The notes under the pieces: model-generated
Told to the model about the DNA's origin: nothing
Seen by the model: only the letters and a program-made list of their open reading frames with translations
Databases searched by the model: none
Position numbers and translations under genes: made by a program
Shown here: positions 1,667 to 28,198 of the stretch, piece after piece
How positions within the stretch are numbered: the first letter of the stretch is position 1
Layout of the letters: every line of letters starts with the position of its first letter
Source of the DNA: an uncultured cyanobacterium
Lineage (GTDB): Bacteria > Cyanobacteriota > Cyanobacteriia > Cyanobacteriales > Cyanobacteriaceae
Length of the DNA: 64,000 bases
NCBI GenBank assembly: GCA_963710605.1
Contig: CAVQBA010000006.1
Location: 256,001 to 320,000 of the forward strand
Reading direction: 5' to 3'

Positions 1667-1667
1667 C

Positions 1668-2508: not shown

Positions 2509-2640
2509 AAGTACGATCGACATCTCGTAGGTTGGGTTAAGCCTCGAAAAGATTAATATACATTCGATACATAAAATAAAAGCCAAACCCAATAACCGTC
2601 GCCTTAATAAAACTAGAAATAGCGATCGTAACCTAACCCT
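2509..2640 (+). repeat. Repeat A copy 1, containing a REP-like GTAGGTTGGGTT...AAACCCAA element
   Basis: Near-identical to 3417-3549 and 4126-4246; begins AAGTACGATCGACATC. Confidence 0.9.
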
Positions 2641-2800
2641 CGATCGATCGAGACAATTTCTACCTTGGGTTTACCTTCCGAATCGAAATCTGTAATGATG
2701 GCTTCTGCTAGTTGTCCAGAAGGTAAGTCTTTTATTTGATAGGTTATCGATGTTTGTTTGAGGTAGAAAAGTTGACCAGATTTGGTTTACGCTATTATTT
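2641..2800 (-). pseudogene. Repeat B copy 2: fragment of a large protein gene
   Basis: Minus strand reads NNSVNQIWSTFLPQTNID (frameshift) TYQIKDLPSGQLAEAIITDFDSEGKPKVEIVSIDR. Confidence 0.8.
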
Positions 2801-2847
2801 TATCGATCGAGTGTTTGTAGATTTGAATTAGATATTGAAGGAGAAAT

Positions 2848-3372
2848 TTGATGACCAGTATTATTATTGATCCCATTGAGCATAAACGTAGAATGGATAC
2901 TTGGAGTTATATTGACAGAATTTGGGACAGAAGCGATATCGCTCAAGAAGAAATTGTTAATATTTTTGATCAGTTCTTTGCTCCCACTATTACTGTTCGG
3001 GAATTGCGGGAATATTATGCCAGAGGAGAAAGAGAATTCATTGACATCAGTTTGCCCCATAAAGCTAATTTGACGGGAATCAATTTGGCTGGTGCGAATT
3101 TGATTGGTGCCAAGTTTAATCACTCCAATCTGACTGGGGCTAATTTGAACGGGGCTAATTTGAGATATGCTTGGATTAATGGAGTTAACTTCACTGAAGC
3201 TAATTTGGAAGGTGTTGATATTTCCTGGGCTGATGCTACTGGAGCTATTTTAAAAAATGCTAGTTTGCTCAATGCGATTGGACAATTTGGTATTAATTGT
3301 GATGCTCTTTATGAAAATACTATCAGACCTAATGGAAGCATTATCAAAGGACCCTATCGCCCTTTCGGATAA
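2848..3372 (+). CDS. Pentapeptide repeat protein (start may be ATG 2851)
   Basis: YARGEREF leader followed by ANLTG/INLAG/ANLIG/ANLNG repeats; GAAGGAG RBS upstream. Confidence 0.9.
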   Translation: MMTSIIIDPIEHKRRMDTWSYIDRIWDRSDIAQEEIVNIFDQFFAPTITVRELREYYARGEREFIDISLPHKANLTGINLAGANLIGAKFNHSNLTGANLNGANLRYAWINGVNFTEANLEGVDISWADATGAILKNASLLNAIGQFGINCDALYENTIRPNGSIIKGPYRPFG

Positions 3373-3416
3373 TTCTAATAAGTTATTATTCGCTAATAAA
3401 AAAACTGGTAGCCTAT

Positions 3417-3549
3417 AAGTACGATCGACATCTCGTAGAAAAAGGTGAAGCCCCGAAAAGATTAATATACATTCGATACATAAAATAAAAGCCAAACCCA
3501 ACAACCGTCACCTCAGTTAAACTAGAAATAGCGATCGTAACCTAACCCT
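3417..3549 (+). repeat. Repeat A copy 2
   Basis: Direct repeat of 2509-2640. Confidence 0.9.
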
Positions 3550-3720
3550 CGATCGAGACAATTCCTACCTTGGGTTTATTTTGAGAGTCAAAACCTGTGA
3601 TAGTGACTTGTACTAATTGCCCTATTGGTAAGTCTTTTATTTCATCGATTATCGATGTTTGTTTGAGGTAGGAGAGTTAACCAGATTTGATTTACGCTAT
3701 TATTTAGTTGATTAATTATT
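3550..3720 (-). pseudogene. Repeat B copy 3: fragment of a large protein gene
   Basis: Minus strand reads QIINQLNNSVNQIWLTLLPQTNID... then IKDLPIGQLVQVTITGFDSQNKPK; first part is in frame with antisense ORF 3642-4199. Confidence 0.8.
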
Positions 3721-3734
3721 TGAGGATTTGAACT

Positions 3735-4115
3735 ATGACTATGGAAGGTGGAGAATTGATCGCTCGTTATGGGGCGGGAGAAAGAGACTTTGCTGGAGTC
3801 GATTTGAGTGATGCCGATTTGCAAGATGTTCATTTGGATGGGATCAATTTGGAAGGGGCTATCTTGGATGGGGCTAATATGTGTTTTAGCACTTTTTCTC
3901 ATGCTAACTTCAAAAATGCCAGTATGGAAGAAATTGTTGCTCAAGAAACTTTCTTTGGAGATGCCACTTTTGAAAATGCTAATCTCAGAAATGCTATTAT
4001 TGCTGAATGTTGTATTGATAGAGCTAGTTTCAAAGGAGCTAATATTGAAGGTGTCGATGATAGCCTTTTCTACGGGGAGTATATATGGAGCGATGGAAAA
4101 GTCATTAGTGAGTGA
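3735..4115 (+). CDS. Pentapeptide repeat protein
   Basis: ELIARYGAGERDF leader followed by VDLSD/ADLQD/INLEG/ANLRN repeats; GAGGA RBS. Confidence 0.9.
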   Translation: MTMEGGELIARYGAGERDFAGVDLSDADLQDVHLDGINLEGAILDGANMCFSTFSHANFKNASMEEIVAQETFFGDATFENANLRNAIIAECCIDRASFKGANIEGVDDSLFYGEYIWSDGKVISE

Positions 4116-4125
4116 GTAATCTTCA

Positions 4126-4246
4126 AAGTACGATCGACATCTTGTAGGTTGGGTTAAAGCCTCGAAAAGCTCAATATAAATTCGATACATAAAATACAAG
4201 CGAAAGCTAACAACAGTCGCCTCAGTAAAACTAGAAATAGCGATCG
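4126..4246 (+). repeat. Repeat A copy 3
   Basis: Direct repeat of 2509-2628, ending at GCGATCG. Confidence 0.88.
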
Positions 4247-4278
4247 ATCCCCCTAAATCCCCCTTAGAAAGGGGGACT
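4243..4278. repeat. 36-bp REP-like repeat, exact inverted partner of 5516-5551
   Basis: ATCGATCCCCCTAAATCCCCCTTAGAAAGGGGGACT. Confidence 0.9.
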
Positions 4279-4327
4279 CGATCTATTTATGTATCGCTTT
4301 TATAGATTGAATTGGTCTTCTTACTTA

Positions 4328-5455
4328 TTACTCCCACAATCGCCGACGAGACGAACCATTATAGCGGTGATGGCTATCATACAATAACTGCGGTATATCT
4401 AAAGATTCGGGGCATTTAGGTAAACATTCGCCACATTCGGTACATTTGTTTCCTTTTTGTCCCCAAAACCAATGCCCTGCATTTTCAAACATTTGATAAC
4501 GATATTTAGCGTATTCTGTCATCTCCAAACCAACACCAAGATTACGCAGACGTAATATTTCAGATATATTGATATTTTCAGGGCAAGGTAAACATAGATG
4601 ACATTGACTACATCGATCGGTTTGTAAAATCTCGCTCAATGCGGTTTCAATTTTAGCAAAAGTTTGTTGTTCTTCAAAAGTTAACGATCGATCGTCTTCG
4701 GCGACTGATAATGGTACGATAAACTGTTCTGGATTACTTGCCCCTAAACTCAATGTGGTAATACGTCGATCGTTAAGTAAAAAACGGTAATTCAAATACA
4801 TCGGTGTAAAAGGCTGACAAAGACTACTCAATTTAGTTGAAGGTTGATGTAACAACCCTCCTTTGTCTACAGGAGAAATAATAAATACACCCATATCTTT
4901 CTCTTGGGCTAATGTTAAAGCAGGGCTATTTCTTTGCCAAAAATAATAGTAGTGTAAATTAACAAACGAAAATAGATTTGTTTCGATCGTCTTGCTAATT
5001 AAATCTAAATTACCATGAGTAGAAAAACCAATATGTTTAATTTTTCCTAATTGTTGTGCTTTTTTTAAAACATCTAAGCAACTGTTTTTTTGCGTAACAA
5101 TTTCTAAATGTTGTGGCGTATTAATTCCGTGAATAGCAACACAATCAAGATAATCTACTTGTAAATTAGCTAAAGATTCATCTAACCATTTTTGCATTAT
5201 TTGAGCAGAATCAACAGGAGTAAATTTAGTCGTAATAACAATTTTTTCACGAGGAATATTTAACTGTTTTAAAGCCTTACCCAAATATTGTTCACTTTCA
5301 CCGTAAGCCTTTGCAGTTTCTATATGATTGATACCTAATTCTAATGCTTCATTAACGGTGTCTAACAATTGATTATAATTATCACAACAACGCATCAAAC
5401 CAAGAGAGAAAACCGACATTTTTAATTCTGTCTTACCAAAACGACGATATAGCAT
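4328..5455 (-). CDS. Aldo/keto reductase with C-terminal 4Fe-4S dicluster domain
   Basis: MLYRRFGKT start, GINHIETA..YG.SE, HIGFSTHG, CSQCHLCLPCP and CTECGECLPKCP. Confidence 0.92.
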   Translation of the reverse strand: MLYRRFGKTELKMSVFSLGLMRCCDNYNQLLDTVNEALELGINHIETAKAYGESEQYLGKALKQLNIPREKIVITTKFTPVDSAQIMQKWLDESLANLQVDYLDCVAIHGINTPQHLEIVTQKNSCLDVLKKAQQLGKIKHIGFSTHGNLDLISKTIETNLFSFVNLHYYYFWQRNSPALTLAQEKDMGVFIISPVDKGGLLHQPSTKLSSLCQPFTPMYLNYRFLLNDRRITTLSLGASNPEQFIVPLSVAEDDRSLTFEEQQTFAKIETALSEILQTDRCSQCHLCLPCPENINISEILRLRNLGVGLEMTEYAKYRYQMFENAGHWFWGQKGNKCTECGECLPKCPESLDIPQLLYDSHHRYNGSSRRRLWE

Positions 5456-5515
5456 TGCATAGTTAATAGTTGATATAGCGTTTCCTACATTTATGAGGTA
5501 TAGTTTATATTTGCA

Positions 5516-5551
5516 AGTCCCCCTTTCTAAGGGGGATTTAGGGGGATCGAT
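5516..5551. repeat. 36-bp REP-like repeat, inverted copy of 4243-4278
   Basis: AGTCCCCCTTTCTAAGGGGGATTTAGGGGGATCGAT. Confidence 0.9.
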
Positions 5552-5580
5552 ATGTGATTCATAATACTAATAATTGCTAT

Positions 5581-5850
5581 CTATAAAACGATCGTCTCTT
5601 GTCAAATGTGCTAAGTAATTAATTATTCATTCTAAGGGTTAGTTGTTGGGTTTCGTTTTTATTTTATTTGTAGTTTAGATCTTAAGCCTTTAGAGACTCA
5701 ACCCAACCTACAACTATAAAACGATCGTCTCTTGTCAAATGAGCTAAGTAATTAATTATTCATTTTAAGGGTTAGTTGTTGGGTTTCGTTTTTATTTTAT
5801 CTCTAGTTTAGATCTTAAGCCCTTGGAGGCTCAACCCAACCTACAACTAT
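5581..5850 (-). repeat. Tandem duplication of a 133-bp unit carrying the GTAGGTTGGGTTGAG...GAAACCCAAC REP-like element
   Basis: Units start at 5581 and 5714 with CTATAAAACGATCGTCTCTTGTCAAATG; the element is related to repeat A but on the opposite strand. Confidence 0.9.
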
Positions 5851-5863
5851 TCCTCTTTTGTTA

Positions 5864-5952
5864 CTCCCCTCTCCTGCGAGGAGCGGTCAGACCCCGCGTC
5901 GGCGTAGGACGCAAGGGAACGCTGACCAAGACAGAGGGGTTGGGGGTGAGGT
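5864..5952. repeat. GC-rich nested-hairpin dispersed repeat
   Basis: Outer arms CCCCTCT...AGAGGGG(TTGGGGGTGAGG); inner stems CTCCT/AGGAG, GGTCAG/CTGACC, GCGTC/GACGC. Confidence 0.7.
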
Positions 5953-5994
5953 AAAATCAAAATAAGGCTGGTACTTTTTTTCATGGAAATGTCT

Positions 5995-9760: not shown

Positions 9761-11302
9761 TATTGCTTTAACAATGTAATCAGCTAAAGTCACTCCATCA
9801 ACTCCCATTTCGCTGACATCTTCAACTGCTAAAATACCTGCTTGTTGATGTAACCATGCGGCTAGGGCTACCATATCAGCAACAGAATATTTAGTATAAT
9901 CTCCTTGAGAAACTAAAGCACAAATCAAACCACTGAGTACATCTCCATTTCCTCCTCTGGCTAAAGCGGGTGTACTCTTATTTATTACCCATGTATGTCC
10001 ACCTCGATCGCAAATCATAGTTTTAGCACCTTTAAGTAAAATAATACAATTTGCTTCTCTAGAGGCTTGTTGTACACCCTGTAAACGATTTTTGGTTAAA
10101 TCAATGTCAGGAAATAACCGTTTAAATTCTCCTTCATGAGGAGTAAGTATAGTAATACCTTGGCGTTGAGACAACAATGAGTAAACATTTTCTTCGGCTA
10201 AAAGATTTAAACCATCCGCATCAATTAATAATGTATTTTGACTAGCTAAAAGTTGTCCGACAAATTGACGGGCTAGAGATGTTACCTCACGAGAAAAACC
10301 CATCCCAAAACCAATCACGTCATATTTAGATAAATCATCAGGATGAATCGGAATTGTATTCATCTCTCCTGTATTTGTTTCGTTACTACCAATTACTAAT
10401 GCCATAGGAATATTTTGATTAATCAATGGTTTTACTGAGGAGGGAACAACCATGGTTAACATCCCCACACCGCCACTATTTGCTCCATATCCAGAGAGTA
10501 ATGCCGCTCCTGCATACCTAGCAGAGCCACAAATTAAAGCGATGTTTCCTTGGCGATATTTATGGGTATTGACACGGCGAGGTAATGGTAAGATTGCTTT
10601 GGCTTTTGTCGGGGTAATCAATTCTACTGCTGTACGAGGATTGATGAATTCGGTAACAACATGATCAGGAATACCAATATCAATTAAATACGAATTACCG
10701 ATGTATTCAACGGCGTTGTCTTGAAATAAACCGATTTTCCATAATCCTAAACAAAATGTATCTGTGGCTTTGATCGCAATTCCTTGTACTGTACCTGTAT
10801 CACTATTAATTCCTGATGGAATATCAATACTAACTACTGGTTGTGATAATTGATTAACAAATTCGATATCTTGAAATAGTCTTCCTTCGATCGATCGTTG
10901 TAAGCCGAAACCTAATAAACTATCAATGATAAAATTACACTGCTGTAACTCTTCTATCTGTTGAACAAAATTAAGCCCTAGAAATTGAGCATAATTAAGA
11001 TGTTGTAAGGTTAAATTTTTTGATTTATTCGCTAGAGGTGCATATAAATAAACATCATAACCATTAAGATGTAATTCTCTGGCAATTACCAAACCATCTC
11101 CACCATTATGACCACAACCAACAATTATGCCCACTTTATCATATTTGTTTTGAGGATATAATTGTTCAATTTTTTGGCTTGACAAAAGTGCAACTTTCTC
11201 CATTAAACTCGCTATAGGCATTTGATGAGCAAATAGTTGGTTCTCTATTTGTTGCATTTGTTGTGTGGTAACGATCGTTTGTGTTATGGTTGTTTTTCTC
11301 AT
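9722..11302 (-). CDS. nnr: Bifunctional NAD(P)H-hydrate epimerase/dehydratase
   Basis: G.GHNGGDG, DIPSG, IDADGLN, LTPHEGEF.RL, LARGG.GDVLSG. Confidence 0.92.
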   Translation of the reverse strand: MRKTTITQTIVTTQQMQQIENQLFAHQMPIASLMEKVALLSSQKIEQLYPQNKYDKVGIIVGCGHNGGDGLVIARELHLNGYDVYLYAPLANKSKNLTLQHLNYAQFLGLNFVQQIEELQQCNFIIDSLLGFGLQRSIEGRLFQDIEFVNQLSQPVVSIDIPSGINSDTGTVQGIAIKATDTFCLGLWKIGLFQDNAVEYIGNSYLIDIGIPDHVVTEFINPRTAVELITPTKAKAILPLPRRVNTHKYRQGNIALICGSARYAGAALLSGYGANSGGVGMLTMVVPSSVKPLINQNIPMALVIGSNETNTGEMNTIPIHPDDLSKYDVIGFGMGFSREVTSLARQFVGQLLASQNTLLIDADGLNLLAEENVYSLLSQRQGITILTPHEGEFKRLFPDIDLTKNRLQGVQQASREANCIILLKGAKTMICDRGGHTWVINKSTPALARGGNGDVLSGLICALVSQGDYTKYSVADMVALAAWLHQQAGILAVEDVSEMGVDGVTLADYIVKAIKQLTIKQLTINN

Positions 11303-16158: not shown

Positions 16159-17683
16159 TTAACCTTCGACTTTCAATTCTTTAATAGCGGGGCCGTGAAG
16201 AATTTTACCTGCGGTATCAAAACGTGAACCATGACAAGGGCAATCCCAACTTTTTTCAGCCGCATTCCAAGCCATAATACAGCCTAAGTGAGGACAAACA
16301 GCCGATACTTGGTGTAGTTCTCCTGTTTCGTCTCGGTAAGCACCAACTTTTTTAAGTCCTGCGGTAACTAGTTTTCCTTCGCCTATTTTCACGTCTTCGG
16401 GGCTTTCACCAAGGTTTTTAAAACGATCGCCTACCCAACGTGTACCAACATCTAAATTGTTTTTAATTGATGCTTTACTGACAAAAGGAGTGGCACGGGT
16501 GGAATCATAAAGCGTCGCCCATGAATTTTGTTGATTTAAAATTAAATCTTTTAATAACATCGCTGAAAGTGTACCGTTAGTCATTCCCCATAAACTAAAT
16601 CCTGTAGCGACATATGTATGTTTATGTAACGGTGTTAAATTACCGACATAAGGTACTTGATCGAATGATTTAAAATCTTGAGATGACCAATAATAATCGA
16701 TTTTTTCTACACCAAAATGTTCACGAGCATAATTACCCAAACGAGCAAAACGCTCTTCGGTATCGTCGGCTTCACCTACTTTATGCCCTTCACCACCGAT
16801 TAATAACAGAGTACCACCATCATCAGTAGGAGTTGTACGAATAGAGCGGTATTTATCTCCCGTGCCAATAAAGACTGCCGTTGTGGGTGCTTTGTCTGCA
16901 TCAATACGAGCACCGACTAAATAAGAGCGTTGCGGATGAGTTTTAGCAAAAAATAATCCTAAATCAAGAATAGGTAAATTAGTGGCAACAATTACATCAG
17001 TAGCGGTAATTGTCAATCCATCTACAGTTTTAACTTTGCAAGGCTCTTCACCATCAACAGTTTCAATGCGAGTTTGCTCGAATACATAAGAACCATCACC
17101 ATCAATTTTAGCCGCTAAAGCAAGTAAGTATTTACGTGGATGGAATTGGGCTTGATTGGTAAATTTAACCGCTCCTAAGACAGGAAATGGGAGGGGGACT
17201 TCATCGACAAAAGATGCCGGTAAACCAAGGGATTGAGCGGCTTCTACTTCTTTTTTTACTTTCTCTAAAGTGTCAGGAGATGTGGCAAATGTATAGGCAT
17301 CTTTACGCTCAAAATCACAATCGATTGATTCTGTTTCAACTAAGGTAGCAATTTGTTCGATTGCCGCTTGATTAGATTCACCATATGCTCGTGCTTTTTC
17401 TTCTCCCATTTTGTCAATGAGTGTCGCATATTTGAGTTGATGTAAGGCAGTAACTTTCGCAGTTGTATGTCCAGAAGCACCTTGAGCAATACTGTCAGCT
17501 TCAATTAAAGCTACTTTTTTTTCCTGCTTTTTTTAATAAATAAGCGGCGGTAACACCCGCTATTCCAGCACCAACAATGGCAACGTCAATTTCTATATTT
17601 TCAGTTAAAGAAGGATAGGTAGAAGCAAGAGTAGAATCAATCCAAAAAGACTGATGACTGTCTAAAAATGAAGGTATAGTCAT
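16159..17683 (-). pseudogene. FAD-dependent oxidoreductase with C-terminal Rieske domain (YhfW-like), frameshifted
   Basis: VGAGIAG in 17501-17683 joins ORF 16159-17409 (CPHLGC...WDCPCHGSRF) if one base is removed from the T8 run at 17515-17522. Confidence 0.85.
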
Positions 17684-17735
17684 GGCTTAATACTATTTAT
17701 AGTCTATAAAGTTTTGAGTGAGGATAAATACTTGA

Positions 17736-17836
17736 AGTGCCAATCTTCTACCAAGACAATAAATGTCAGAAGTAAAATTACAGGTCGAGGTATATTTACG
17801 ACCGGGAATCAACTCTAGTAGAAGATCATTGGCACT
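17736..17836 (-). ncRNA. Candidate structured leader RNA (unassigned)
   Basis: Long closing stem enclosing 2-3 hairpins, about 50 nt upstream of the ATG at 17683. Confidence 0.3.
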
Positions 17837-18157
17837 ATAACGGGGCATATGTACTGATTATACAAAGGTAAATAAATTTTAATATCTAACTAAAGGAAGA
17901 TGAGGAGATTATCGAAAAACTCTGTTTTTTTGACAGTTAATTAAGAGACTAAATCATAAACATAAATATTGTTTCATCTATAAGACTGAAATTATGTCAC
18001 TATATTTAACTAATTTTTGAATTTTGACAAGGATAGGATAGTTAGTTTTTTAACTGATAATATCAAGTTAAATTTTAGAAACAAACGGAAAAGTTTGCTT
18101 TAAATACTAGTAAGTAATCAATTTACTTTTTCAATAGACTTCTGGCAAATTACTAAC

Positions 18158-18544
18158 ATGAAATCACTATTAATACCGATCGCAATTATTATTGGTGCAA
18201 CAATAGGTGCAATATCTCGTTTTTATTTAACTGAATGGACAAAAAGAGTTTGGGGCGATCGATTTGCTTACGGCACATTTATCGTGAATATCACAGGATG
18301 TTTGTTAATCGGTTTATTTTTTACTTTATCTACATCTATTAAAGGTTACTCTACAGAATTAGATATTTTAATCAGAACAGGTTTTTTAGGCTCTTTTACC
18401 ACATTTTCTACTTACAGTTGGGAGACTTTTATCCTTTGGCATGATCATAAAGTATTGAGTCTGTTTTACTCGTTGGCAAGTGCTATTTTTGGGATAGCTG
18501 CGGTTTATCTTGGTATTCTATTGGGTAGGTTATTTATTAATTAA
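18158..18544 (+). CDS. crcB: Fluoride channel Fluc/CrcB
   Basis: GA.SR, GTFIVNITGC, TGFLGSFTTFSTY. Confidence 0.93.
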   Translation: MKSLLIPIAIIIGATIGAISRFYLTEWTKRVWGDRFAYGTFIVNITGCLLIGLFFTLSTSIKGYSTELDILIRTGFLGSFTTFSTYSWETFILWHDHKVLSLFYSLASAIFGIAAVYLGILLGRLFIN

Positions 18545-18552
18545 AAAAGATT

Positions 18553-18954
18553 ATGTTTCAATCAATTCGCCCTGCAATTGCAATCGCTTTAGGTGCAAGT
18601 ATAGGGGCATTGAGTAGATACTATCTGGGTGAACTAGTACAAAAAAACTTAGGTGAAGATTTTGGTTTTTATGGTACATTTATTGTCAACATAATCGGCT
18701 GTATCATGATTGGTTTTTTTCTGACGTTGGCTACAGAAAGAATCAAAAATTTTCATCCTGAAATAAAATTACTTTTAACAACAGGTTTTTGTGGTGCATT
18801 TACTACTTTTTCGAGTTTTGAATTAGAAACACAGATTTTTTTAGCCGGGTCGGATTTATTACTTGCTTTTAACTATTGGTTTAGTAGTATTGTAATGGGA
18901 ATAATTGGCATTTTTTTAGGTGTTAGATTAGCAAAATTAGCAACTAGCAATTAG
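18553..18954 (+). CDS. crcB: Fluoride channel Fluc/CrcB, second subunit of a probable heterodimer
   Basis: GALSRY, GTFIVNIIGC, TGFCGAFTTFSSF. Confidence 0.93.
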   Translation: MFQSIRPAIAIALGASIGALSRYYLGELVQKNLGEDFGFYGTFIVNIIGCIMIGFFLTLATERIKNFHPEIKLLLTTGFCGAFTTFSSFELETQIFLAGSDLLLAFNYWFSSIVMGIIGIFLGVRLAKLATSN

Positions 18955-18991
18955 CAATTAATAATTAACAATCAATAATCATTTTTATTAT

Positions 18992-21544
18992 ATGAATAAG
19001 TTTAGCCTTAAATCAAAAATTATTATTTTATTATTAGGAGTTAGTCTTTTTTCTATAGCCACAGGAAGTATTTTAAGTTGGTTAAGATTTAAAATATTAA
19101 TTGAAGAACAAGTTTTTACTCAATTAACTAGTATTAAAAAAACTAAATCTTATCATACCGAATATTATTTTGAAAACTTACGCAATCAGTTAGAAATATT
19201 AAGCGAAAATCAAATTTTAGTTACGGCAATAAGTGAATTTAATACGGCATTTCAAGAATTAGAAAATTATCAACTTTCTAGCAATATAAATCAAGAAGTG
19301 AAAACTTTTTATGAAGAGACTTTTTTTCCTAAATTAGCTCAAAATAGAGAAGGAGAGCAAATTTATAGTAATTATTCTCCTTTAAGTAAAGCAGGTATAT
19401 ATCTTCAGTACCATTATCTAGTTAAAAATCCTTTTTCTTTAGGTGAAAAAAACAAATTAAACTCAGCAAAAGATAATAGTAATTATAGTCAGGTACATAA
19501 TAAATATCATTCAATTTTGCAAGACTTAGTCAAAAAATTTGGCTATAATGATTTATTTTTAATTGATTATCAAACAGAGGCAATTATTTATTCAGTCTAT
19601 AAAGAAACTGATTATGCAACTAATTTACAAAAAGGAGCTTATAGTCGTAGCAACTTAGCTTCTGTTGTTAATGCAGTCAAAGACAATCCTGCTAAAGGTT
19701 TAGTTCATGTAACAGATTTTCAGTCTTATACACCTAGTTATGGTGAACCTGCGGCTTTTTTGGCAATACCTATTTATGATAATACTCAGATTACTGGTAT
19801 TTTAGCTGTTCAATTACCGATCGATAAACTTAACAGTATTTTAATAGAAGATAATGCTTTTCAAGGATTAGGAAATACAGGCGAAGTTTATTTATTTGGT
19901 AATGATTATTTAATGAGATCTCAAGCTAGATTATTAAAAGAAAATCCTCAAAAATATTCTCAACAAATTAAAAAATTAGGTTTACCTGAATTAACTATTA
20001 AATTAATTGAAAATTATCAAAGTTCGGTTTTTTTACAACCAGTAGATAGGAAAATAGCTAACTTAGCTATTTCAGGGGATTCAGGAAATATTATTACTGA
20101 AAATAATCAAGGTAAATTGATTTTTAGTTCTTATTCACCTTTAGATATAAAGGGATTACAGTGGGGTATTATTGCTCAAATAGAAGCCGATGAAGTTTTT
20201 GAACCTTTATATTCGTTTTTATCTAATTTAGTGGTTATCAGTGCCATTACCGCAGCACTTATTTTAGGTATATCAAATTTAGCTTCCCGAAATTTAATTA
20301 AGCCAATTCAATCTTTAATCAATTTAGGTGACAAAATACAAGCGGGAAATTACGATATTAAAGCACAATTGAATCGTAATGATGAATTACAAGAGTTAGC
20401 TCAAAGTATTAATCATATTATCGATCGAGTTCAAATTCAATCGCAATTAGTAGAAGAAAAAAGTCAAAAAAATAAAAGTTTATTATTAAATATTCTTCCT
20501 GATGTAGTTGTTGAAAGACTCAATCAAGGTGAACAATCAATTAATGATTCTGTTTCTCAAGCTACTGTTGTCGCCACTAGAATCGTCGGCTTAGATGAAT
20601 TAGCAACTCAAAGAAATCTTGCTGAAATTGCTGAAATTTTTAATCAGCTAATTAATAGTTTTGATGGGTTAGCAATCGAATATGGTATAGAAAAGCAAAA
20701 CACGATTGGGGCTGGATATATCGGTATTTGTGGTTTATCAGTCGCTTATTTAGATCATGAACAAAGATGTGTTAGGTTTACTTTTGAAATGCTAGAAGCG
20801 ATCGAATCTGTTAATGCAAAATATGAAACTAATCTTGGTTTAAGAATAGCAATTCATTCTGGGGCGTTAAGTGCAAGTATTATTGGTAAACAGAAATTTG
20901 CATATCAAGTTTGGGGAGAAACAATTGATAATATCATCAAAATCAATCAAGCACAAAAAATAAATAATATTTTAGTGACTCAATCTCTTCAAGAAAAATT
21001 AACAGATCAATATTTATTTATTAAACATTACGGTGTCGATAACGAAGCAAAAGGTAAGATTCAGACATGGATGTTGATGACACCTAAAGGTACATTCTCT
21101 AAACAAGTAGATTTAGTTCAAGATTCTTTCGTTAAATTATTACCTCAAATGGATTCGACAGGAGAATTGTTTTACGATCGATTATTTAAAGTTGCTCCTC
21201 AAGTTCGTCGTATGTTTAAAAAAGACATGAAAACACAACATCAAAATTTAATGTCAACTTTACAAATAGCAGTGAATGGTTTGAGGAATTTAGAAACTTT
21301 GTTACCGATTGTGCAAGATTTGGGGAGAAAACACGTAGGTTACCACGTTGTGCCCGAACAATACGATTTAGTCGCAGAAGTCTTGATTTGGACTTTAGAG
21401 CAACAACTAGCTCAAGATTTTACTCCTTCAGTCAAAGTAGCTTGGCGTACTGCTTTATCTTTAATTATTAATGTGATGAAAGATGCGGCTATGTCTGTAT
21501 CTGATTTAAATGTAGAAAACAAAAAAATTAATCAAGCTGTTTAA
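18992..21544 (+). CDS. Membrane sensor: TM-dCache-TM-HAMP-class III cyclase-like (degenerate)-globin
   Basis: YSVYKETDYATNL and GLG.TGEVYL Cache region; HAMP; LLLNILP, LRIAIHSG, Y.VWGET cyclase fold; C-terminal globin (ELFYDRLF..AP..R.MF, LGRKHVGY, AW). Confidence 0.88.
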   Translation: MNKFSLKSKIIILLLGVSLFSIATGSILSWLRFKILIEEQVFTQLTSIKKTKSYHTEYYFENLRNQLEILSENQILVTAISEFNTAFQELENYQLSSNINQEVKTFYEETFFPKLAQNREGEQIYSNYSPLSKAGIYLQYHYLVKNPFSLGEKNKLNSAKDNSNYSQVHNKYHSILQDLVKKFGYNDLFLIDYQTEAIIYSVYKETDYATNLQKGAYSRSNLASVVNAVKDNPAKGLVHVTDFQSYTPSYGEPAAFLAIPIYDNTQITGILAVQLPIDKLNSILIEDNAFQGLGNTGEVYLFGNDYLMRSQARLLKENPQKYSQQIKKLGLPELTIKLIENYQSSVFLQPVDRKIANLAISGDSGNIITENNQGKLIFSSYSPLDIKGLQWGIIAQIEADEVFEPLYSFLSNLVVISAITAALILGISNLASRNLIKPIQSLINLGDKIQAGNYDIKAQLNRNDELQELAQSINHIIDRVQIQSQLVEEKSQKNKSLLLNILPDVVVERLNQGEQSINDSVSQATVVATRIVGLDELATQRNLAEIAEIFNQLINSFDGLAIEYGIEKQNTIGAGYIGICGLSVAYLDHEQRCVRFTFEMLEAIESVNAKYETNLGLRIAIHSGALSASIIGKQKFAYQVWGETIDNIIKINQAQKINNILVTQSLQEKLTDQYLFIKHYGVDNEAKGKIQTWMLMTPKGTFSKQVDLVQDSFVKLLPQMDSTGELFYDRLFKVAPQVRRMFKKDMKTQHQNLMSTLQIAVNGLRNLETLLPIVQDLGRKHVGYHVVPEQYDLVAEVLIWTLEQQLAQDFTPSVKVAWRTALSLIINVMKDAAMSVSDLNVENKKINQAV

Positions 21545-21566
21545 TGTAATTAACTCAAAAGAAAAA

Positions 21567-23081
21567 ATGGCAAAATCAACTTTAGTTTGGGGATTAATTA
21601 TCATGATTGCTATTCCAATTGTGGCAGTTATTTTAATTGAGTGTATTCGTTATTTTGAGAAACAAAAAAGTTTGTTTACTCCTGTTGTTAAAAATATTTG
21701 GCAATATATTTTTCCTCTAACGGTTTTATTGTTAGTGATGACTAAACTTTTAAATTTTACCAGTAATAATATACTAGTAAAGGTCATTGAAACAGGTTTT
21801 TGGATTGGAGCATTTATTACTTTACTGGCAGTAATTAACTCAATTTTAACGACAAAAGAAGTAGGTAAAGGGCTTTCACAGATAAAAGTATCTAATCTAT
21901 TTTTTCAATTAACCCGTGGTTTAGTTTTAGCCGTTATTTTCTATTATGTTTTTGAAGTCGTTTGGCAAGTTAATTTAGCTAACTTAGCAGGTGCATTAGG
22001 AATTGGTTCGTTAGTAATTGCTTTAGCCCTGCAAGATACTTTTAGTGGTCTTGTTTCGGGTTTTTTATTAGCAATCGATCGACCTTTTAAAGTTGGTGAT
22101 TGGATAAAATTTAATGAAATTGAAGGAGAAGTTATTGACCAAAATTGGCGTGCGGTGAGAGTAGAAACATTGTTTGGTGATGAGATTATTATTCCTAATA
22201 GTATTTTATCTAAAGCGGTGATTACTAACCCTGTGAATCTTTATCCTTGGATTTGGCGAGAGTTAGATGTCCGTTTTGCTTATTATCATCCTCCTAATTT
22301 AATCAAAAAAATCATTTTAGAAGAAGTGTTCGAGAAAACACCCAGTATATTTGTTGAGCCTAAGCCTGTAGTTCGTGTTAGTGCTTATGAAGATTTTTAC
22401 ATTAAGTATTATATTGGTTTTGCGATGAACGATCGAGAATATCGTTCTTGTCTTGACTATGACGACATGGTTATGACTCAAATTTATTACGCTACAAAAC
22501 GAGCTAATTTGGTCACACCAATCTCAACTAAAATACAATTAAAAAGCGATCGACATCCTTATAATCCTTATTATGATCCTAATGATAAATACGATCGTGA
22601 TTATATTCAACAATTTTTACAACTACTATCTTATTTTTCTTATCTAGATGAAAAGACGATCGCAAATTTGACAACTAAAGCCAGTTTAAAAACTTATGGT
22701 ATGAATGAATATATTATTCAAGCACAAGAAACAGATCAAGGATTATATATTATTTTAGAAGGTAGTGTCAAACTTCAAATTAGAGATTGGCAAAATGAAC
22801 AAAAAATAGTTAGTCATCTATTCAAAGGTGATTTATTCGGTGAGATGGCACTTTTAGAAAACGAATCTTCTCCTGTTTCTATTCTGGCGATAGAAGATGT
22901 TACGGTAGTTATCTTTAACCATCAATTAATTAATACTATTATTGATAGTAACGCCAAATTTGGTCGAGATATGAATCAATTTATTGAAGAGCGGAAAAAA
23001 TTGATCGGTTTTGCTCAAGGCTTAGAAAATACAACTAAAAATCGAACCAACGAAGATGATTTTACACAGTTAATTGTTTAG
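21567..23081 (+). CDS. MscS-family channel with C-terminal cyclic-nucleotide-binding domain
   Basis: ALALQDT..GL.SG, DRPFKVGDWI, IIPNS; GLYIILEGSV and GDLFGEMALL. Confidence 0.9.
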   Translation: MAKSTLVWGLIIMIAIPIVAVILIECIRYFEKQKSLFTPVVKNIWQYIFPLTVLLLVMTKLLNFTSNNILVKVIETGFWIGAFITLLAVINSILTTKEVGKGLSQIKVSNLFFQLTRGLVLAVIFYYVFEVVWQVNLANLAGALGIGSLVIALALQDTFSGLVSGFLLAIDRPFKVGDWIKFNEIEGEVIDQNWRAVRVETLFGDEIIIPNSILSKAVITNPVNLYPWIWRELDVRFAYYHPPNLIKKIILEEVFEKTPSIFVEPKPVVRVSAYEDFYIKYYIGFAMNDREYRSCLDYDDMVMTQIYYATKRANLVTPISTKIQLKSDRHPYNPYYDPNDKYDRDYIQQFLQLLSYFSYLDEKTIANLTTKASLKTYGMNEYIIQAQETDQGLYIILEGSVKLQIRDWQNEQKIVSHLFKGDLFGEMALLENESSPVSILAIEDVTVVIFNHQLINTIIDSNAKFGRDMNQFIEERKKLIGFAQGLENTTKNRTNEDDFTQLIV

Positions 23082-23120
23082 TCAGAGTAATTTAATACTT
23101 TTGTATTGATGATAAAAGTT

Positions 23121-23310
23121 AAGACATAATTTTAGTTCAATTTATTGAACGGTTGTTGTAGCCTTGTCAATTGATTGCAAGGCGGGTTTTATCTTCTTTT
23201 TCTATTATTACTTATACTGTCTCAAACTTAATTTAAACAACTATAAGACATAATTTTAGTTCAATTTATTGAACGGTTATTTGTAGCCTTGAACTTAAGT
23301 TCAAGGCTAA
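23121..23310. repeat. Partial tandem duplication of the dispersed hairpin repeat also present at 6875-6979
   Basis: AAGACATAATTTTAGTTCAATTTATTGAACGGTT at 23121 and 23245. Confidence 0.85.
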
Positions 23311-23382
23311 TCATGTACGTTAACTAAAGTTAACTTTTAGTTTATTGGGAGATTTATTAGTGTATATAATCTTTTTTTGCTT

Positions 23383-23413
23383 AGGTGCAATTATGAAATT
23401 ACGATCGCACCTA
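23383..23413. terminator. Hairpin downstream of the phosphomannomutase gene
   Basis: TAGGTGC...GCACCTA. Confidence 0.4.
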
Positions 23414-23424
23414 ATATATTAATC

Positions 23425-24963
23425 CTAACTATTAAATTGTTCAAACACTGATAAATCTAATTGCTCAAACTGCTTAAAAAACATCAGTAAACGAGAAGCA
23501 ATTTTACTCACACCACCACTGATATTACTTTCTATATTTAAAGGTATAACAGGATCGTGTAAAGATAAACGTAATAAAAACCAACCTTTTTCTTGCTCAG
23601 ATTCACAAGCCACTCTTACCCCTTCATGATTGGGAGTAACTAGTTGCCAATCTGATTGAGTTTGAACAAATTCGCTTAATTCGTCAATTACTTTATTTCC
23701 ATATGCTTTAAAGTCATCTGTATTAATTGCAAAACGAAATTCTTCACTTTCAATCGGCTCAACTAAATCAGCGATTAAATCGGTTAATTTTTGCCCCTTT
23801 AAATTCAACTTGGCTAATTCGATTAATAATTTGGTGATTAAATAAGCACCATCATCAAGAAAATGGTTTTCTTTTAATGCCCCATGCCCTGAAGTTTCGA
23901 TCGCTAACCATGATTCCTCTCCTGCTTCGTTTAGCTTTAAAGATTCGTTGATAACGTTTTTGTAACCACGTTTGAAACGATGATGTTTACCTTGTAATTT
24001 TTCTACGATAAATTGAGTTAATCCATCAGAGGTAATTGAATCTGTAACAACAGTTGAGTGAGGATGCTCGGTTAAAACGATCGAACTGATTAAAGCAATC
24101 AGACGGTTACGATTTAATTCTTTACCCTCGGCATCAACCGCCGCTGAGCGATCGACATCAGTATCAAAAATAATACCAAAATCAGCTTGATTATCAACAA
24201 CAGCTTGAGAAATTGAAGCCATCGCCTCTTTGTTTTCAGGGTTAGGAATATGGTTAGGAAAATTACCATCAGGCTCTAAAAACTGACTTCCTGTAGTATC
24301 TGCCCCTAAGGGTTTTAATACTTTATCAGCGTAAAATCCACCTGCACCATTACCAGCATCTACGATTATTTTTAACCCTTGTAAAGGTTGCTCAAAACTG
24401 TCTGGATGATTGACAGCCTTTCTAATTTGTTGAACGAAACCATCGGCATAAACCGAAATAAAGTCATGGTTAGTTACTTTACCTTTGGTATCACTATCAA
24501 TAAATTCGTTTTGCTCAGCGAGGGTTAAAATATCAGTAATATTTTGTTTTCCTAAACCACCATTAGGGGTAAAAAATTTTAAACCATTACGATTAAAAGG
24601 TAGGTGACTAGCTGTTAACATAATCGCTCCATCGCAATTAAACCCATCGGTGATAGTACTCATAAACATTGCCGGAGTAGAGGCGATCGCAAAATTTAAT
24701 ACATTTGCCCCCAGACTATTGATACCTTCGCTTAAGGCTTTGAGTAATGTCTCTCCTGATAAACGACTATCTCTACCTACAGAAACAGTGAGTTGATTAG
24801 TTGGTTTTTGGCTTTGTTGACTTAACCATTGCGTAAAGGCTTTACCTAAAATGGTAACAACTTCAGGAGTTAGGTTAACCTTTTCGCCTTTTACTCCTTC
24901 AATTGCTACACCTCTAATATCAGAACCATTTTGTAGTTTTTGCCAATTAGTTGTTGTGATCAT
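23425..24963 (-). CDS. Phosphomannomutase/phosphoglucomutase
   Basis: GSDIRG, TASH phosphoserine, FDTDVDR metal loop, ETSGH; likely start ATG 24963. Confidence 0.92.
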   Translation of the reverse strand: MITTTNWQKLQNGSDIRGVAIEGVKGEKVNLTPEVVTILGKAFTQWLSQQSQKPTNQLTVSVGRDSRLSGETLLKALSEGINSLGANVLNFAIASTPAMFMSTITDGFNCDGAIMLTASHLPFNRNGLKFFTPNGGLGKQNITDILTLAEQNEFIDSDTKGKVTNHDFISVYADGFVQQIRKAVNHPDSFEQPLQGLKIIVDAGNGAGGFYADKVLKPLGADTTGSQFLEPDGNFPNHIPNPENKEAMASISQAVVDNQADFGIIFDTDVDRSAAVDAEGKELNRNRLIALISSIVLTEHPHSTVVTDSITSDGLTQFIVEKLQGKHHRFKRGYKNVINESLKLNEAGEESWLAIETSGHGALKENHFLDDGAYLITKLLIELAKLNLKGQKLTDLIADLVEPIESEEFRFAINTDDFKAYGNKVIDELSEFVQTQSDWQLVTPNHEGVRVACESEQEKGWFLLRLSLHDPVIPLNIESNISGGVSKIASRLLMFFKQFEQLDLSVFEQFNS

Positions 24964-25267: not shown

Positions 25268-28198
25268 TTACCAAGTAAAATTAGTTTCGTAAACTTTCTT
25301 GCAGATAAAGTAAGAAAAGACTAAAAATAAAATCATTGGAATTGCGATCGCAATTAAGTTTGACAGACCAAAAGTCTCTAAAATATTTTTTAAAGGTAAA
25401 ACGAATTGGTGAGTGATAAAAAATGGAAATGCTAAAATCCCAATAGTTGCTGTTGCTTGAAAGATAAATTTAAGCCACTGAGGAAATTCATTGTATTGAG
25501 ATAAAATACGATCGTTAATTTTTAAAAGTACTAAAATCGCTCCAATATTAAATATCCAAGTCCAAGAAGATACTGGACGTGGCCACGTCCACCAAGTATC
25601 AAATGAATCAGCATGAGAAGAAGTGACTAGTGCGAAGGAAATCAAAGCAAGACCAATCCAAATGTAGTCAGTATTAAGCGGATTTATTTCTTTATTTATT
25701 TTCTTCCTCATGGCAATACCAATACTCATACCAACTAATACGCCAGGAGTGAGGCTAAAGTAACCAAATTTGGCAACCATCAAAATTTTAAATAATTCAA
25801 CTAAGCCATAGGCTGTGTAATTTCCCCAACCTTGTAAGAAAAAATAATATAAAAAGTGAATTAGTACACCCAAACACAAACTGACAACAACAGGATTTTT
25901 AACTTTCTCTAGTAACTTAAACCACAATCCGAGAGTAGCAGTAATTAAGAAGAAATAGCTAATAACAGAATAGAAAGAGTTAGTAAAATTAGTAAATGAA
26001 TCAAATCGATTAGTAGCTAATTGCAGTCCAATCACTCTAATTGATAGAGCGATAATACCTACAAATAAAAGTTTTAACGTTGTTTTAATAAGTTTGTAAA
26101 AACGTTGACGATCGTTTTTATATATTTCAAACAAAGAATAACCAGCCGAAACACCATACACAATACTAAAACCTTGAGTACCTGCCGCAAATATATTCGC
26201 CATCACAGGTGCTAATATTTGACCAATAACTGAAGGTAGCTTATCAAAAAGACCAGCTGACCAATGTCCAGATATAACGCAAAAAACTAAAAATCCACGA
26301 ATTATATTGATATTAAAACCTGTTTTAGTATAAAGATTAGAAATAGTGTGAGATATTTTAACAGGTTCTTTTTCGGTATTTTGAGAGGCTTGAATTCTTT
26401 GAGCTAATTCTCTAACTGACAAACCTTGTAACATTCCCCTGACAATCTCACGAGGAATACCTAACTGCTCCATTTTGACCATTACTGAGATCGCTGTTAA
26501 GGAGTCTCCACCAATGGAAAAGAAGTTACTCTCAGGTTCAATGTTATCTACTCCTAGAACTTCTTGCCAAACTTTAATAATATGTTGTTCTTGTTCGTGC
26601 TGAGTATTTGTCGTAGTGGTTGCTGTTGTCGTTTTTGAGCCTTCAATTCTCTGGGCTAACTCCCTGACTGACAAGCCTTGCAACATTCCCCTAACAATAT
26701 CACGAGAGATACCTAACTGCTCCATTTTGACCATTACTGAGATCGCTGTTAAGGAGTCTCCACCGATTGAAAAGAAGTTGCTATCTGGTTCAATATTTTC
26801 TACTCCTAATATTTCTTGCCAAACCTCGATGATATGTCTTTCTTGTTCACTGAGATGATTACCACCATTGGTTGAGAAGACATCAACATCAGGGGCTGTA
26901 CTATCAATTTTTGGTTCAGCTTCAAATAGTTTAGTTAATTCTTTTCTTTTGATTTTACCTGTGTTAGTAGTGGGAAATTCATCCAACTCAATTAGTTTAA
27001 TGGCATCAAAACTACGAATATTATTTGCCGCCATTGCTTCTGTGGCGGCTTTTTTGACTGATTCTAATGGTAAATTGTATTCTTTTAAGGTAGCAATTAG
27101 GATACCATCACCTCTCATAACATCTGGTATTCTGGTAACTGCAACACCTGATTTGATTTGAAGTGTTTCTCTGATGTGTTTTTCGATCGTTTCTGGTGAT
27201 ATTTTGATTCCACCACAGTTAATTAAATCATCCGCTCTACCTTGATAGTAAATATAACCATTCTCAATCTTACCTAAATCGTTAGTAGTTAACCATCCTT
27301 GTTGATCAATATTTTCAATTAATTCACCGTTAACTAACATTTTGCGAGCAACGTTATCTCCTTTAATCATTATTTTTTGTTCAGGAGATAATTTGATTTG
27401 CATATTACCGTAACCTTTACCTACAGATTCTAAATCGATACCTGAAGTTTGATCAATTTCTAAAAATGTACTTCGAGATGCTTCAGTTAAACCGTAGTGT
27501 TGAAGTATTTTAGCATTAGGAAAAAGAGCTTTGATTTGTTCTTTTTCTTTTTGACTCATGTATTGACTACCAATTTCAATCCACTTTACTTGATGAGTTT
27601 CTTGACCAAAAATTTGTTGACATTGAAATAACAATCGCCATAAACTAGGAACAGCAGAGATAGCATTAATCGATCCTTCTAACAGCATATCTCTGATTTC
27701 TAGCGGATTAAATCCATTTTCAGGTAAATAAAATTCTCCTCCTGCGGTGGCAACGGCTCGGCATCTACCAAAACCGAATGAATAATTAACTGGAATACCC
27801 ACATATTCTCTAATAGTTGAATCGACTTTCATTGTGTGGTTAAGACGCTCAACAACATCGTTTAAGTTTTGATGAGATAACAATACCCCTTTAGGATTTC
27901 CTGTTGTACCTGAAGTAAAAGCTATTTGGGCGAGCGATTCTGTTTGTTGAGGAATAAAACCTATTTTACACCAACCAAACTCTAATTTGGGGGTAATTAT
28001 TTTTTTTGCCCCTGTTAAATCTATTTTATAGTAATCTTGTTCACTCGTTAAAAATACGGCTATTTTTTTTTCTTGAAAACAGTTAAAAATTGTCCTGATA
28101 AAATCGATCGAATTAACTGAGACAACCCCAACTATTTCTCTAGTATTTGCACCAAAAATATGTTGTTTCGTTTGTGGGGAGATAATATCGTTTTCCAT
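25268..28198 (-). CDS. NRPS-like protein: adenylation domain + two carrier domains + polytopic membrane (acyltransferase-like) domain
   Basis: FTSGTTGNPKG, YGLTEA, TNDLG, GRADD, TGKIKR; GGDSL twice; about 350-aa hydrophobic C-terminus starting NIIRG..VF.VI.GH. Confidence 0.85.
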   Translation of the reverse strand: MENDIISPQTKQHIFGANTREIVGVVSVNSIDFIRTIFNCFQEKKIAVFLTSEQDYYKIDLTGAKKIITPKLEFGWCKIGFIPQQTESLAQIAFTSGTTGNPKGVLLSHQNLNDVVERLNHTMKVDSTIREYVGIPVNYSFGFGRCRAVATAGGEFYLPENGFNPLEIRDMLLEGSINAISAVPSLWRLLFQCQQIFGQETHQVKWIEIGSQYMSQKEKEQIKALFPNAKILQHYGLTEASRSTFLEIDQTSGIDLESVGKGYGNMQIKLSPEQKIMIKGDNVARKMLVNGELIENIDQQGWLTTNDLGKIENGYIYYQGRADDLINCGGIKISPETIEKHIRETLQIKSGVAVTRIPDVMRGDGILIATLKEYNLPLESVKKAATEAMAANNIRSFDAIKLIELDEFPTTNTGKIKRKELTKLFEAEPKIDSTAPDVDVFSTNGGNHLSEQERHIIEVWQEILGVENIEPDSNFFSIGGDSLTAISVMVKMEQLGISRDIVRGMLQGLSVRELAQRIEGSKTTTATTTTNTQHEQEQHIIKVWQEVLGVDNIEPESNFFSIGGDSLTAISVMVKMEQLGIPREIVRGMLQGLSVRELAQRIQASQNTEKEPVKISHTISNLYTKTGFNINIIRGFLVFCVISGHWSAGLFDKLPSVIGQILAPVMANIFAAGTQGFSIVYGVSAGYSLFEIYKNDRQRFYKLIKTTLKLLFVGIIALSIRVIGLQLATNRFDSFTNFTNSFYSVISYFFLITATLGLWFKLLEKVKNPVVVSLCLGVLIHFLYYFFLQGWGNYTAYGLVELFKILMVAKFGYFSLTPGVLVGMSIGIAMRKKINKEINPLNTDYIWIGLALISFALVTSSHADSFDTWWTWPRPVSSWTWIFNIGAILVLLKINDRILSQYNEFPQWLKFIFQATATIGILAFPFFITHQFVLPLKNILETFGLSNLIAIAIPMILFLVFSYFICKKVYETNFTW
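26391..26848 (-). repeat. Internal duplication encoding the two carrier (PCP/ACP) domains
   Basis: About 26391-26596 and 26645-26848 are highly similar at DNA and protein level. Confidence 0.9.

Follow-up and report, generated by a model that had tools for sequence, protein, structure and literature searches.

A cyanobacterial Cache-HAMP receptor with a degenerate cyclase-homology domain and a flavohemoglobin-type globin tail, encoded beside an MscS-like channel

The window analysed here is a stretch of 64,000 nucleotides (nt) from an uncultured cyanobacterium of the family Cyanobacteriaceae (assembly GCA_963710605.1, contig CAVQBA010000006.1, positions 256,001 to 320,000 of the forward strand). 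At 18992–21544 of the forward strand it contains an uninterrupted frame for an 850-residue membrane receptor, in which Pfam recognizes, in this order and with intervening membrane helices, a periplasmic dCache_1 domain, a HAMP domain, a class III cyclase-homology domain (CHD) and a globin. The CHD has lost its entire catalytic site, and the receptor gene is followed by that of an MscS-like channel. We propose, with moderate confidence in the statement as a whole, that the receptor transduces signals without catalysis, combining a heme signal with that of a periplasmic ligand, and delivers a conformational output, probably to the co-encoded channel.

The receptor begins with a transmembrane helix at about residues 10–31 (19019–19084, approximate limits), a hydrophobic run that lies inside a helix spanning residues 6–71 of the structural model. 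The periplasmic region extends from about residue 32 to residue 403, of which the dCache_1 stretch (PF02743, 48.4 bits against a cut-off of 45) covers residues 184–395 (19541–20176), and it ends at the second transmembrane helix, which is hydrophobic in sequence and helical in the model at about residues 404–427 (20201–20272). This is the arrangement of a dCache_1/HAMP receptor, in which a periplasmic dCache_1 domain is flanked by two transmembrane helices and followed by HAMP, here at residues 431–481 (20282–20434; PF00672, 34.4 bits against 25). A helical linker at residues 486–519 (20447–20548) leads into the CHD at residues 520–696 (20549–21079; PF00211, Guanylate_cyc, 95 bits against 21.9), and the C-terminal 3-on-3 globin occupies residues 701–840 (21092–21511). 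The linker resembles the element known in class IIIa/b cyclases as the cyclase transducer. All of these features lie on the forward strand.

A structure of the receptor was modelled with AlphaFold2 from 15 family members (mean pLDDT 72, pTM 0.45). It contains, in order, the long N-terminal helix, a mixed α/β periplasmic region and the membrane helix 404–427. After these come the HAMP domain and one long helix, then an α/β domain resembling the CHD, and finally the six helices of the globin within residues 701–849, with about 5 residues between the last strand of the CHD and the start of the globin. The original prediction, made from the letters of the window, had given the same domain order and had placed the globin at about 21100–21490; Pfam and the model bear out the order, and the model helices and domain limits confirm the globin at about 21092–21511. 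Public databases annotate the family proteins as 'adenylate/guanylate cyclase domain-containing protein'.

Catalytic positions were mapped by HMMER alignments to the C1 and C2 domains of the solved adenylyl cyclases AC8 and AC9. The C1 alignments place R530 and A574 at the positions of the two metal-binding Asp residues, the C2 alignments place N570 and Q639 at those of the substrate-specifying pair, which is Lys and Asp or Glu and Cys, and the transition-state Asn and Arg fall on D646 and K650. None of the six canonical residues is therefore retained in the window CHD. The original prediction had read the losses from the motifs ATRIVGL, NTIGA and WGETIDNIIK, which are present at residues 528, 570 and 641, and its statement that the metal Asp pair and the Asn/Arg pair appear lost agrees with these alignments. 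The profile and the fold are those of a class III cyclase, whereas the metal, substrate and transition-state residues are all missing. In Foldseek searches, the CHD part of the model matched solved cyclase catalytic domains with target-normalised TM-scores of 0.69–0.81, structures of soluble guanylate cyclase (sGC) and of transmembrane adenylyl cyclases (tmAC) among them. By each of these sequence criteria the window CHD reads as a pseudo-cyclase. Because all six catalytic residues are replaced, it would be unable to make cyclic nucleotide, and we regard it as very probable that the receptor is not a cyclase.

Loss of the first metal Asp runs through the globin-tailed relatives. A protein search with receptor residues 500–850 found 79 proteins, and 17 clusters, the window's included, carry PF00211 and PF00042 together, the named ones being cyanobacterial, from Calothrix, Microcoleaceae and Oscillatoriales. 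The first metal site is Asp in none of these 17 clusters (Arg in 11, Lys in 2, Gln in 2, Ser in 1 and His in 1), which supports the pseudo-cyclase reading of the original prediction. The dead site is common to all 17 clusters and is therefore old and maintained.

In the 15-sequence alignment of the globin-tailed family, mean column entropy was 1.18 for the Cache domain, the lowest among the receptor domains, 1.26 for the linker preceding the CHD, 1.34 for the globin, 1.42 for the CHD and 1.74 for HAMP. The CHD as a whole is conserved about as much as the globin across these 15 members, and the linker residues N494, L498, N500, P503, G513 and E514 are invariant in all of them. The six catalytic columns, in contrast, lie between the 49th and 96th percentiles of CHD column entropy, and the family alignment showed no conserved pair of acidic residues that might compensate. 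This pattern indicates that the structure of the CHD is maintained, whereas the positions of the old active site may change freely, which fits a transducer or scaffold role and argues against a new specific ligand pocket.

The genomic distribution gives the same picture of a recurrent protein. From a scan of species-representative genomes the best 80 of 311 related stretches were retained, and 11 of these 80 loci encode a globin tail. All 11 are cyanobacterial, from Xenococcus sp. PCC 7305, Xenococcus, Calothrix, Microcoleaceae, Lyngbya, Rivularia bins, Kamptonema sp. UHCC 0994 and others. The original prediction had called for a search for the architecture in relatives and had allowed that the fusion might be an assembly artefact; its recurrence in 17 clusters and at 11 further genome loci settles this point, and the receptor–globin fusion is no artefact. 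The single available genome of the same genus, 67% complete, gave no receptor homologue.

In a midpoint-rooted FastTree tree of 77 receptors, the globin-tailed receptors fall within one clade (17 tips, SH-like support 0.94), which also includes five globin-less members. At one of the latter, L002, a receptor frame of 715 residues is followed by the channel gene after about 50 nt, so that the absence of the globin is genuine. Degeneration of the catalytic site is graded across the 77 receptors: none of the six residues is kept at 12 loci, one at 21, two at 12, three at 15, four at 7 and five at 10, and a further relative, L083, has all six in canonical form (D, K, D, D, N, R).

The globin tail is a complete domain. 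PF00042 matches residues 727–829 with 62.5 bits against a cut-off of 22, covering positions 3–117 of the 117 in the profile, and the model contains helices of the A–H set within residues 701–849 with pLDDT mostly 73–89. The nearest solved globins are Hell's Gate globin I (HGbI; 3S1I, E 1.8e-24) and HGbRL (3WFW, 2.4e-23); E. coli Hmp also matches (9e-12), and the best NCBIfam match is the Hmp globin. In the alignment to HGbI, a Tyr of the receptor falls on Y29 (B10), a Phe on the CD1 Phe and a Gln on Q50 (E7), and H781 of the LGRKH motif falls on the proximal His (F8). Together with Leu at E11 the window heme pocket is Y/F/Q/L/H, as in HGbI; the helix labels follow globin nomenclature. The four pocket residues named in the original prediction, B10 Tyr, CD1 Phe, E7 Gln and the proximal His, are each confirmed by this alignment. 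Protoglobin (PF11563) gave no match in the receptor at E ≤ 0.1. The tail is, as judged from these comparisons, a globin of the flavohemoglobin lineage (Hmp/HGbI type), unlike the protoglobin-like sensor globin, and it probably binds heme.

A profile search with the globin tail returned 7144 proteins at E ≤ 0.001, 74 of them at E ≤ 1e-30, and we scanned the domain architectures of 40 proteins among 150 listed of these 7144 matches. The globin accompanied a methyl-accepting chemotaxis protein (MCP) signalling domain in 14 of the 40 (C-terminal in 11, N-terminal in 3), CheW in one, where it was C-terminal, and a CHD in four, where it followed the CHD. Three further proteins carried PAS domains, two carried pentapeptide repeats, and the remaining 16 consisted of globin only, often in tandem. 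A word-based protein search with the globin alone at longer protein lengths gave 2 hits. Examples of C-terminal globins on MCP or CheW proteins include P0135, P0162, P0164, P0184, P0185 and P0193; the available part of a globin review (PMC7475203) does not mention such fusions. Signalling proteins thus commonly carry a flavohemoglobin-type globin as an added domain, at either end. Since the same globin type occurs on MCP, CheW and PAS proteins, it marks a sensory module, which favours an input role in the receptor as well. The original prediction had noted that globin-coupled sensors usually carry their globin N-terminally. A C-terminal position is indeed uncommon in comparison with classical globin-coupled sensors, but not for this type of globin, which is C-terminal on MCP proteins in 11 of the 40, on CheW in one and on a CHD in four.

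The second gene of the pair starts 22 nt downstream of the receptor in an intact frame (21567–23081, forward strand) and encodes a 504-residue MscS-like channel of the bCNG (bacterial cyclic-nucleotide-gated) type. It combines an MscS core (PF00924, 70.3 bits) with a C-terminal cyclic nucleotide monophosphate (cNMP)-binding domain (PF00027, 66.8 bits), the latter at residues 375–462 (22689–22952, forward strand). At 63 of 77 receptor loci, the window included, the receptor is followed directly by a channel gene on its own strand. At the others it is found 1.7–3.3 kb downstream (4 loci), upstream (2), on the opposite strand (3) or outside the fetched DNA (5); in two of these last five, L003 and L006, it lies on the same strand at a distance of about 10.4 kb downstream. 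Among the 12 globin-tailed loci the channel is directly downstream in nine, adjacent on the opposite strand in one and about 10.4 kb downstream in two. The cassette is also present in bins of Caldilineaceae, Myxococcota and Gammaproteobacteria. The receptor gene thus belongs to a widespread two-gene cassette with the channel.

Some loci of this family depart from the simple pair. In Xenococcus sp. PCC 7305, opposite-strand frames of 3139 and 208 residues separate receptor and channel (L100:4104-13523, reverse strand); the 3139-residue frame lies between the two genes at L006, and the gap at L003 is known by distance alone. Both genomes with the gap of about 10.4 kb, PCC 7305 and that of L003, have a globin with Tyr at F8 and Arg at E7. 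The PCC 7305 genome carries in addition a second, more distant receptor–channel cassette (L099:2-1366 and 1495-2916, forward strand). In P0063, a protein of 944 residues encoded on one contig, a canonical Cache-HAMP-cyclase runs in frame into the C-terminal half of a channel, with the cNMP-binding domain and no MscS membrane part, which looks like a deletion that joined both cassette genes.

The cNMP-binding-homology domain of the channel also departs from the canonical form. Its phosphate-binding cassette reads FGEMALLENESSPVS, and alignments to four PKG cNMP-binding domains place Ser435 at the position of the Arg of cNMP receptors. In these receptors the Arg neutralises the cyclic phosphate and hydrogen-bonds to it. 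In the channel the R-[ST]-A element has become S-P-V, the cassette no longer being canonical, while the G-E of the cassette is retained. S435 is invariant in all 42 aligned channels, and Ser is found in 70 of 72 channel open reading frames (ORFs), the two others having a contig-end gap and an Asn; G-E is retained in 65 of the 72. A word-based protein search with the C-terminal domain of the channel gave 3 hits. A complex prediction with two copies of receptor residues 486–850 and channel residues 330–504, each entered as an alignment, gave a score of 0.13 (mark 0.32), which speaks neither for nor against binding.

The genome of the window (3.93 Mb in 7 contigs, 84.9% complete) was searched for proteins that make or bind cyclic nucleotides. 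The receptor gene was its only PF00211 match. One CYTH protein of 166 residues was found; the CYTH family is widespread, and most of its members are not cyclases. Among seven cNMP_binding matches, which include NtcA-like and other CRP-family proteins, no canonical R-[ST]-A was recognized by eye, one sequence (ATRWDG) being ambiguous. No source of cAMP or cGMP is thus evident in the searched sequence, subject to the incompleteness of the assembly, and with this caveat both heterodimerisation with another cyclase and a nucleotide supplied in trans are removed here. The original prediction had offered heterodimerisation as one route of output, which the single PF00211 match speaks against.

Two further gene families of this genome touch on the pair. 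It has 12 MscS-family genes, and another one in the window lies at about 39348–39548 on the forward strand (G000:C6:295348-295548). The only other globin is in a 1467-residue ORF (L082:63-4463, reverse strand; G000:C1) resembling SyNOS, which combines Globin, NO_synthase oxygenase, Flavodoxin, FAD_binding_1 and NAD_binding_1 domains. A link between this nitric oxide (NO) synthase and the globin-tailed receptors was considered and rejected, PF02898 being present in none of the 11 other genomes that carry such receptors.

In the closest relatives the receptor–channel pair is part of a five-gene cluster, seen at L004 and in equivalent form at L002–L007, L010 and L012. The three flanking genes of L004 are at 3204-4298, 4519-5982 and 10113-11270, all on the forward strand. 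A MauG/MbnH-like (CCP/MauG-like) di-heme peroxidase and a DAHL-domain protein lie upstream of the pair at 9 of 81 loci, and at 18 of 81 a periplasmic binding protein of the PstS family is encoded downstream of the channel. At its C-terminal end the DAHL open frame has a match to an IS200-like transposase as well, and a search of the window genome with the three proteins gave matches to this IS200-like part only. Directly upstream of the window receptor are instead two tandem CrcB (fluoride channel) genes (18158–18544 and 18553–18954, forward strand), and crcB adjoins the receptor in none of the best 80 related loci. No fluoride riboswitch precedes them, as no Rfam family reached its gathering threshold in 17300–23600. 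Within the same interval, promoter and terminator scans were uninformative, their counts matching those of shuffled sequence; they placed no terminator-like site between the four forward-strand genes. Farther downstream, a reverse-strand ORF of 976 residues (25268–28198) contains SGTTGNPKG, two GGDSL motifs in near-identical repeats and a long multi-pass hydrophobic C-terminal region; by eye, SGTTGNPKG reads as an adenylation-type motif and GGDSL as a carrier-protein motif.

The proposed mechanism is as follows. The receptor is maintained, as its conservation pattern and its recurrence show. It would act as a dimer, its CHD being retained as a conformational transducer that no longer makes cyclic nucleotide. 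Two inputs would converge on the CHD dimer, a periplasmic ligand by way of the Cache domain and the cytoplasmic globin heme by way of its ligation or redox state. The conformational state of the CHD would then be relayed without a diffusible nucleotide. Given two sensory ends, no enzymatic output and the channel as the one constant companion, the signal of the CHD would be read by the channel, which is the most likely target, with its Arg-less cNMP-binding-homology domain serving as a contact or regulatory module. Direct contact with the neighbouring channel is nevertheless a tentative assignment, to which we give somewhat less than an even chance.

Several observations weigh against this proposal. 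We infer the coupling of receptor and channel from gene order only. Among 28 distinct related globin sequences the F8 residue is His in 16 and Tyr in 12, and five of the 12 also have E7 Gln replaced by Arg, a paired change of the heme pocket (tails with F8 Tyr include P0006, P0008, P0009, P0010, L003 and L006). The window globin may bind O2 or NO, as the original prediction suggested, but with Tyr at F8 in 12 of 28, gas binding cannot be a function conserved throughout the family. The Ser-type channel domain also stands beside fully canonical cyclases, at L083 and in P0063, and it might bind nucleotide in a non-canonical way. The L099 channel, conversely, has the Arg (GQRSD), and its receptor keeps two of the six catalytic residues, the first Asp and the Lys, as read by eye. 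A co-degeneration of cyclase residues and channel Arg, which we had considered, is ruled out by these combinations (canonical with Ser, degenerate with Arg), and the two losses are therefore uncoupled. The window receptor itself sits on a long branch, compatible with relaxed function. Two of 18 same-family genomes searched have a receptor homologue, both without globin, and one such same-family homologue (G017:C1:3484583-3486682, reverse strand; 38% identity) has an in-frame TAA and is possibly a pseudogene. The MauG-like peroxidase, DAHL and PstS-like neighbours of the closest relatives have been lost from the window genome. Finally, with an assembly that is 84.9% complete, a second CHD could be unassembled.

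Part of this list would suit a functionless leftover of the five-gene cluster, in which the dead site is simply decay. The closest relatives keep all five genes together, queries with the three cluster proteins recover here only the IS200-like part of the DAHL frame, the long-branched receptor retains none of the six residues, and its same-family homologues are rare and in one case interrupted. We consider such a relic unlikely, as the 850-residue receptor frame and the channel frame 22 nt downstream are both intact, the heme-pocket residues and the invariant linker residues are all kept in the window copy, the CHD is conserved to the same extent as the globin across 15 members, and a dead site common to all 17 clusters is hence old and maintained. 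The preserved fold would also allow the degenerate pocket at the CHD dimer interface to serve as a non-catalytic ligand site, the CHD being a third sensor. The forskolin site of mammalian cyclases offers a comparison for such a pocket, and the Arg at metal site 1, found in 9 of 15 aligned family members and at 22 of 77 receptor loci, could bind an anion. Within the globin clade, however, the six positions are as variable as the average CHD column or more so, and the absence of any conserved residue combination there speaks against a specific ligand; this explanation appears to us quite unlikely.

Residual or non-canonical catalysis through other residues, be it synthesis of a cyclic nucleotide or related nucleotidyl chemistry, with a product that gates the channel through a non-canonical site, would preserve a possible ancestral logic from cyclase to product to channel, given that the six-residue member L083 is paired with the same Ser-type channel and that the G-E of the binding cassette survives in 65 of 72 channel ORFs. 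It is nonetheless very unlikely, with the metal pair (R530, A574), the substrate pair and the transition-state pair all replaced and no conserved acidic pair in the family alignment to compensate. The globin could instead be the output, the Cache, HAMP and CHD parts controlling a heme reaction such as NO detoxification: its B10 Tyr/E7 Gln pocket is of the flavohemoglobin type, its best NCBIfam match is Hmp, and the genome encodes the globin-containing NO synthase of 1467 residues. The receptor has no reductase domain, however, NO synthase is found in none of the 11 other genomes with globin-tailed receptors, and the same globin type occurs on MCP and CheW proteins, where a sensor role is the sole option, all of which makes this explanation highly improbable. 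Regulation of an active cyclase subunit by heterodimerisation with the pseudo-cyclase has a precedent in animals, where some class III cyclases are heterodimers in which one site is degenerate, and the fold matches include solved structures of sGC and tmAC. For this genome it is close to refuted, because the receptor is the single PF00211 match and its CHD lacks both complementary half-sites, leaving it nothing to contribute to a shared active site. The non-catalytic transducer thus remains the reading that we prefer.

Most parts of this system have known counterparts, and the individual domains and the channel family are already described. The combination of an MscS channel with a cNMP-binding domain is named bCNG, the family is mostly cyanobacterial, and according to a 2026 review no structural data are available for it, its physiological role and the part of cyclic nucleotides in its gating not being understood (PMC13591265). 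The gene downstream of the window receptor has exactly this composition, MscS β-domain plus cNMP_binding, but the cassette channels have Ser in place of the phosphate-binding Arg in 70 of 72 cases, and their partner cyclases range from canonical to fully dead. Kinetoplastid PKA regulatory subunits, whose cNMP-binding domains likewise lack the Arg, do not respond to cAMP (PMC10959531). They resemble the channel in the change of the cassette Arg to a polar residue and of the following Ala to Val, but they possess an extra ribose-binding Glu (G-E-x-E) where the channel has G-E-M-A. Nucleoside binding is not indicated for the channel domain, and the analogy was not adopted since this Glu is absent.

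Globin-coupled sensors of the S family comprise HemAT and diguanylate-cyclase, kinase and adenylate-cyclase forms, in which a sensor-type globin at the N-terminus precedes an active output domain at the C-terminus (PMC7475203). The receptor shares with them a heme globin fused to signalling domains, adenylate cyclase among them, but it falls outside the family, as its globin is C-terminal and flavohemoglobin-like (PF00042) and the domain upstream of it is catalytically dead. HGbI (3S1I, 3UBC) and HGbRL (3WFW), a fusion to Roadblock/LC7, have the same B10 Tyr/E7 Gln/F8 His pocket, and HGbRL shows this globin type in regulatory fusions. HGbI is a single-domain protein and HGbRL is fused to another partner; unlike the window globin, neither is attached to a membrane receptor. 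The C1/C2 pair of tmAC and sGC have the same CHD fold, and sGC also links a heme sensor to a CHD dimer. These enzymes, however, produce cAMP or cGMP from the one active site that remains complete, whereas the receptor, expected to be a homodimer, has lost both half-sites and carries its heme domain after the CHD. Degenerate GGDEF/EAL receptors such as LapD are HAMP membrane receptors that keep the fold of a second-messenger enzyme non-catalytically. LapD differs from the window receptor in its fold and in its messenger, and it binds nucleotide as a ligand, of which the window receptor gives no sign.

Our literature search, which left subscription journals mostly uncovered, found no description of a Cache-HAMP receptor in which a dead CHD is combined with a flavohemoglobin-type globin at the C-terminus, of the breadth of catalytic degeneration across the receptor–channel cassette or of the uniform loss of the phosphate-binding Arg of the channel, and no paper that pairs bCNG with adenylate cyclase. 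Much work on pseudo-enzymes has dealt with kinases and c-di-GMP enzymes, whereas those among the class III cyclases of bacteria have, to our knowledge, hardly been studied.

The globin-tailed receptors form a whole clade in which a dead CHD, with its attached heme domain, stays under constraint. The flavohemoglobin-type globins, widespread as sensory domains appended to the C-termini of MCP, CheW and receptor proteins, extend the textbook picture of the globin-coupled sensor. The cassette also constitutes a natural test of bCNG gating: the organism has the channel and the receptor, no active class III cyclase was found in its genome, and no canonical cNMP receptor is evident there. The whole cassette, most clearly in the globin-tailed branch, may go further and be a receptor–channel machine that works without any cyclic nucleotide. 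In it, a periplasmic ligand and the heme state of the globin would directly gate or tune the MscS-like channel, and the Arg-less cNMP-binding-homology domain would form with the CHD dimer a protein–protein coupling pair made from re-used parts. We consider this extension doubtful. If it is true, the cassette would be a bacterial ion channel gated both chemically and by gas or redox state, built from the parts of a second-messenger system, and this branch of the family would be wrongly named by the term 'bacterial cyclic-nucleotide-gated channel'.

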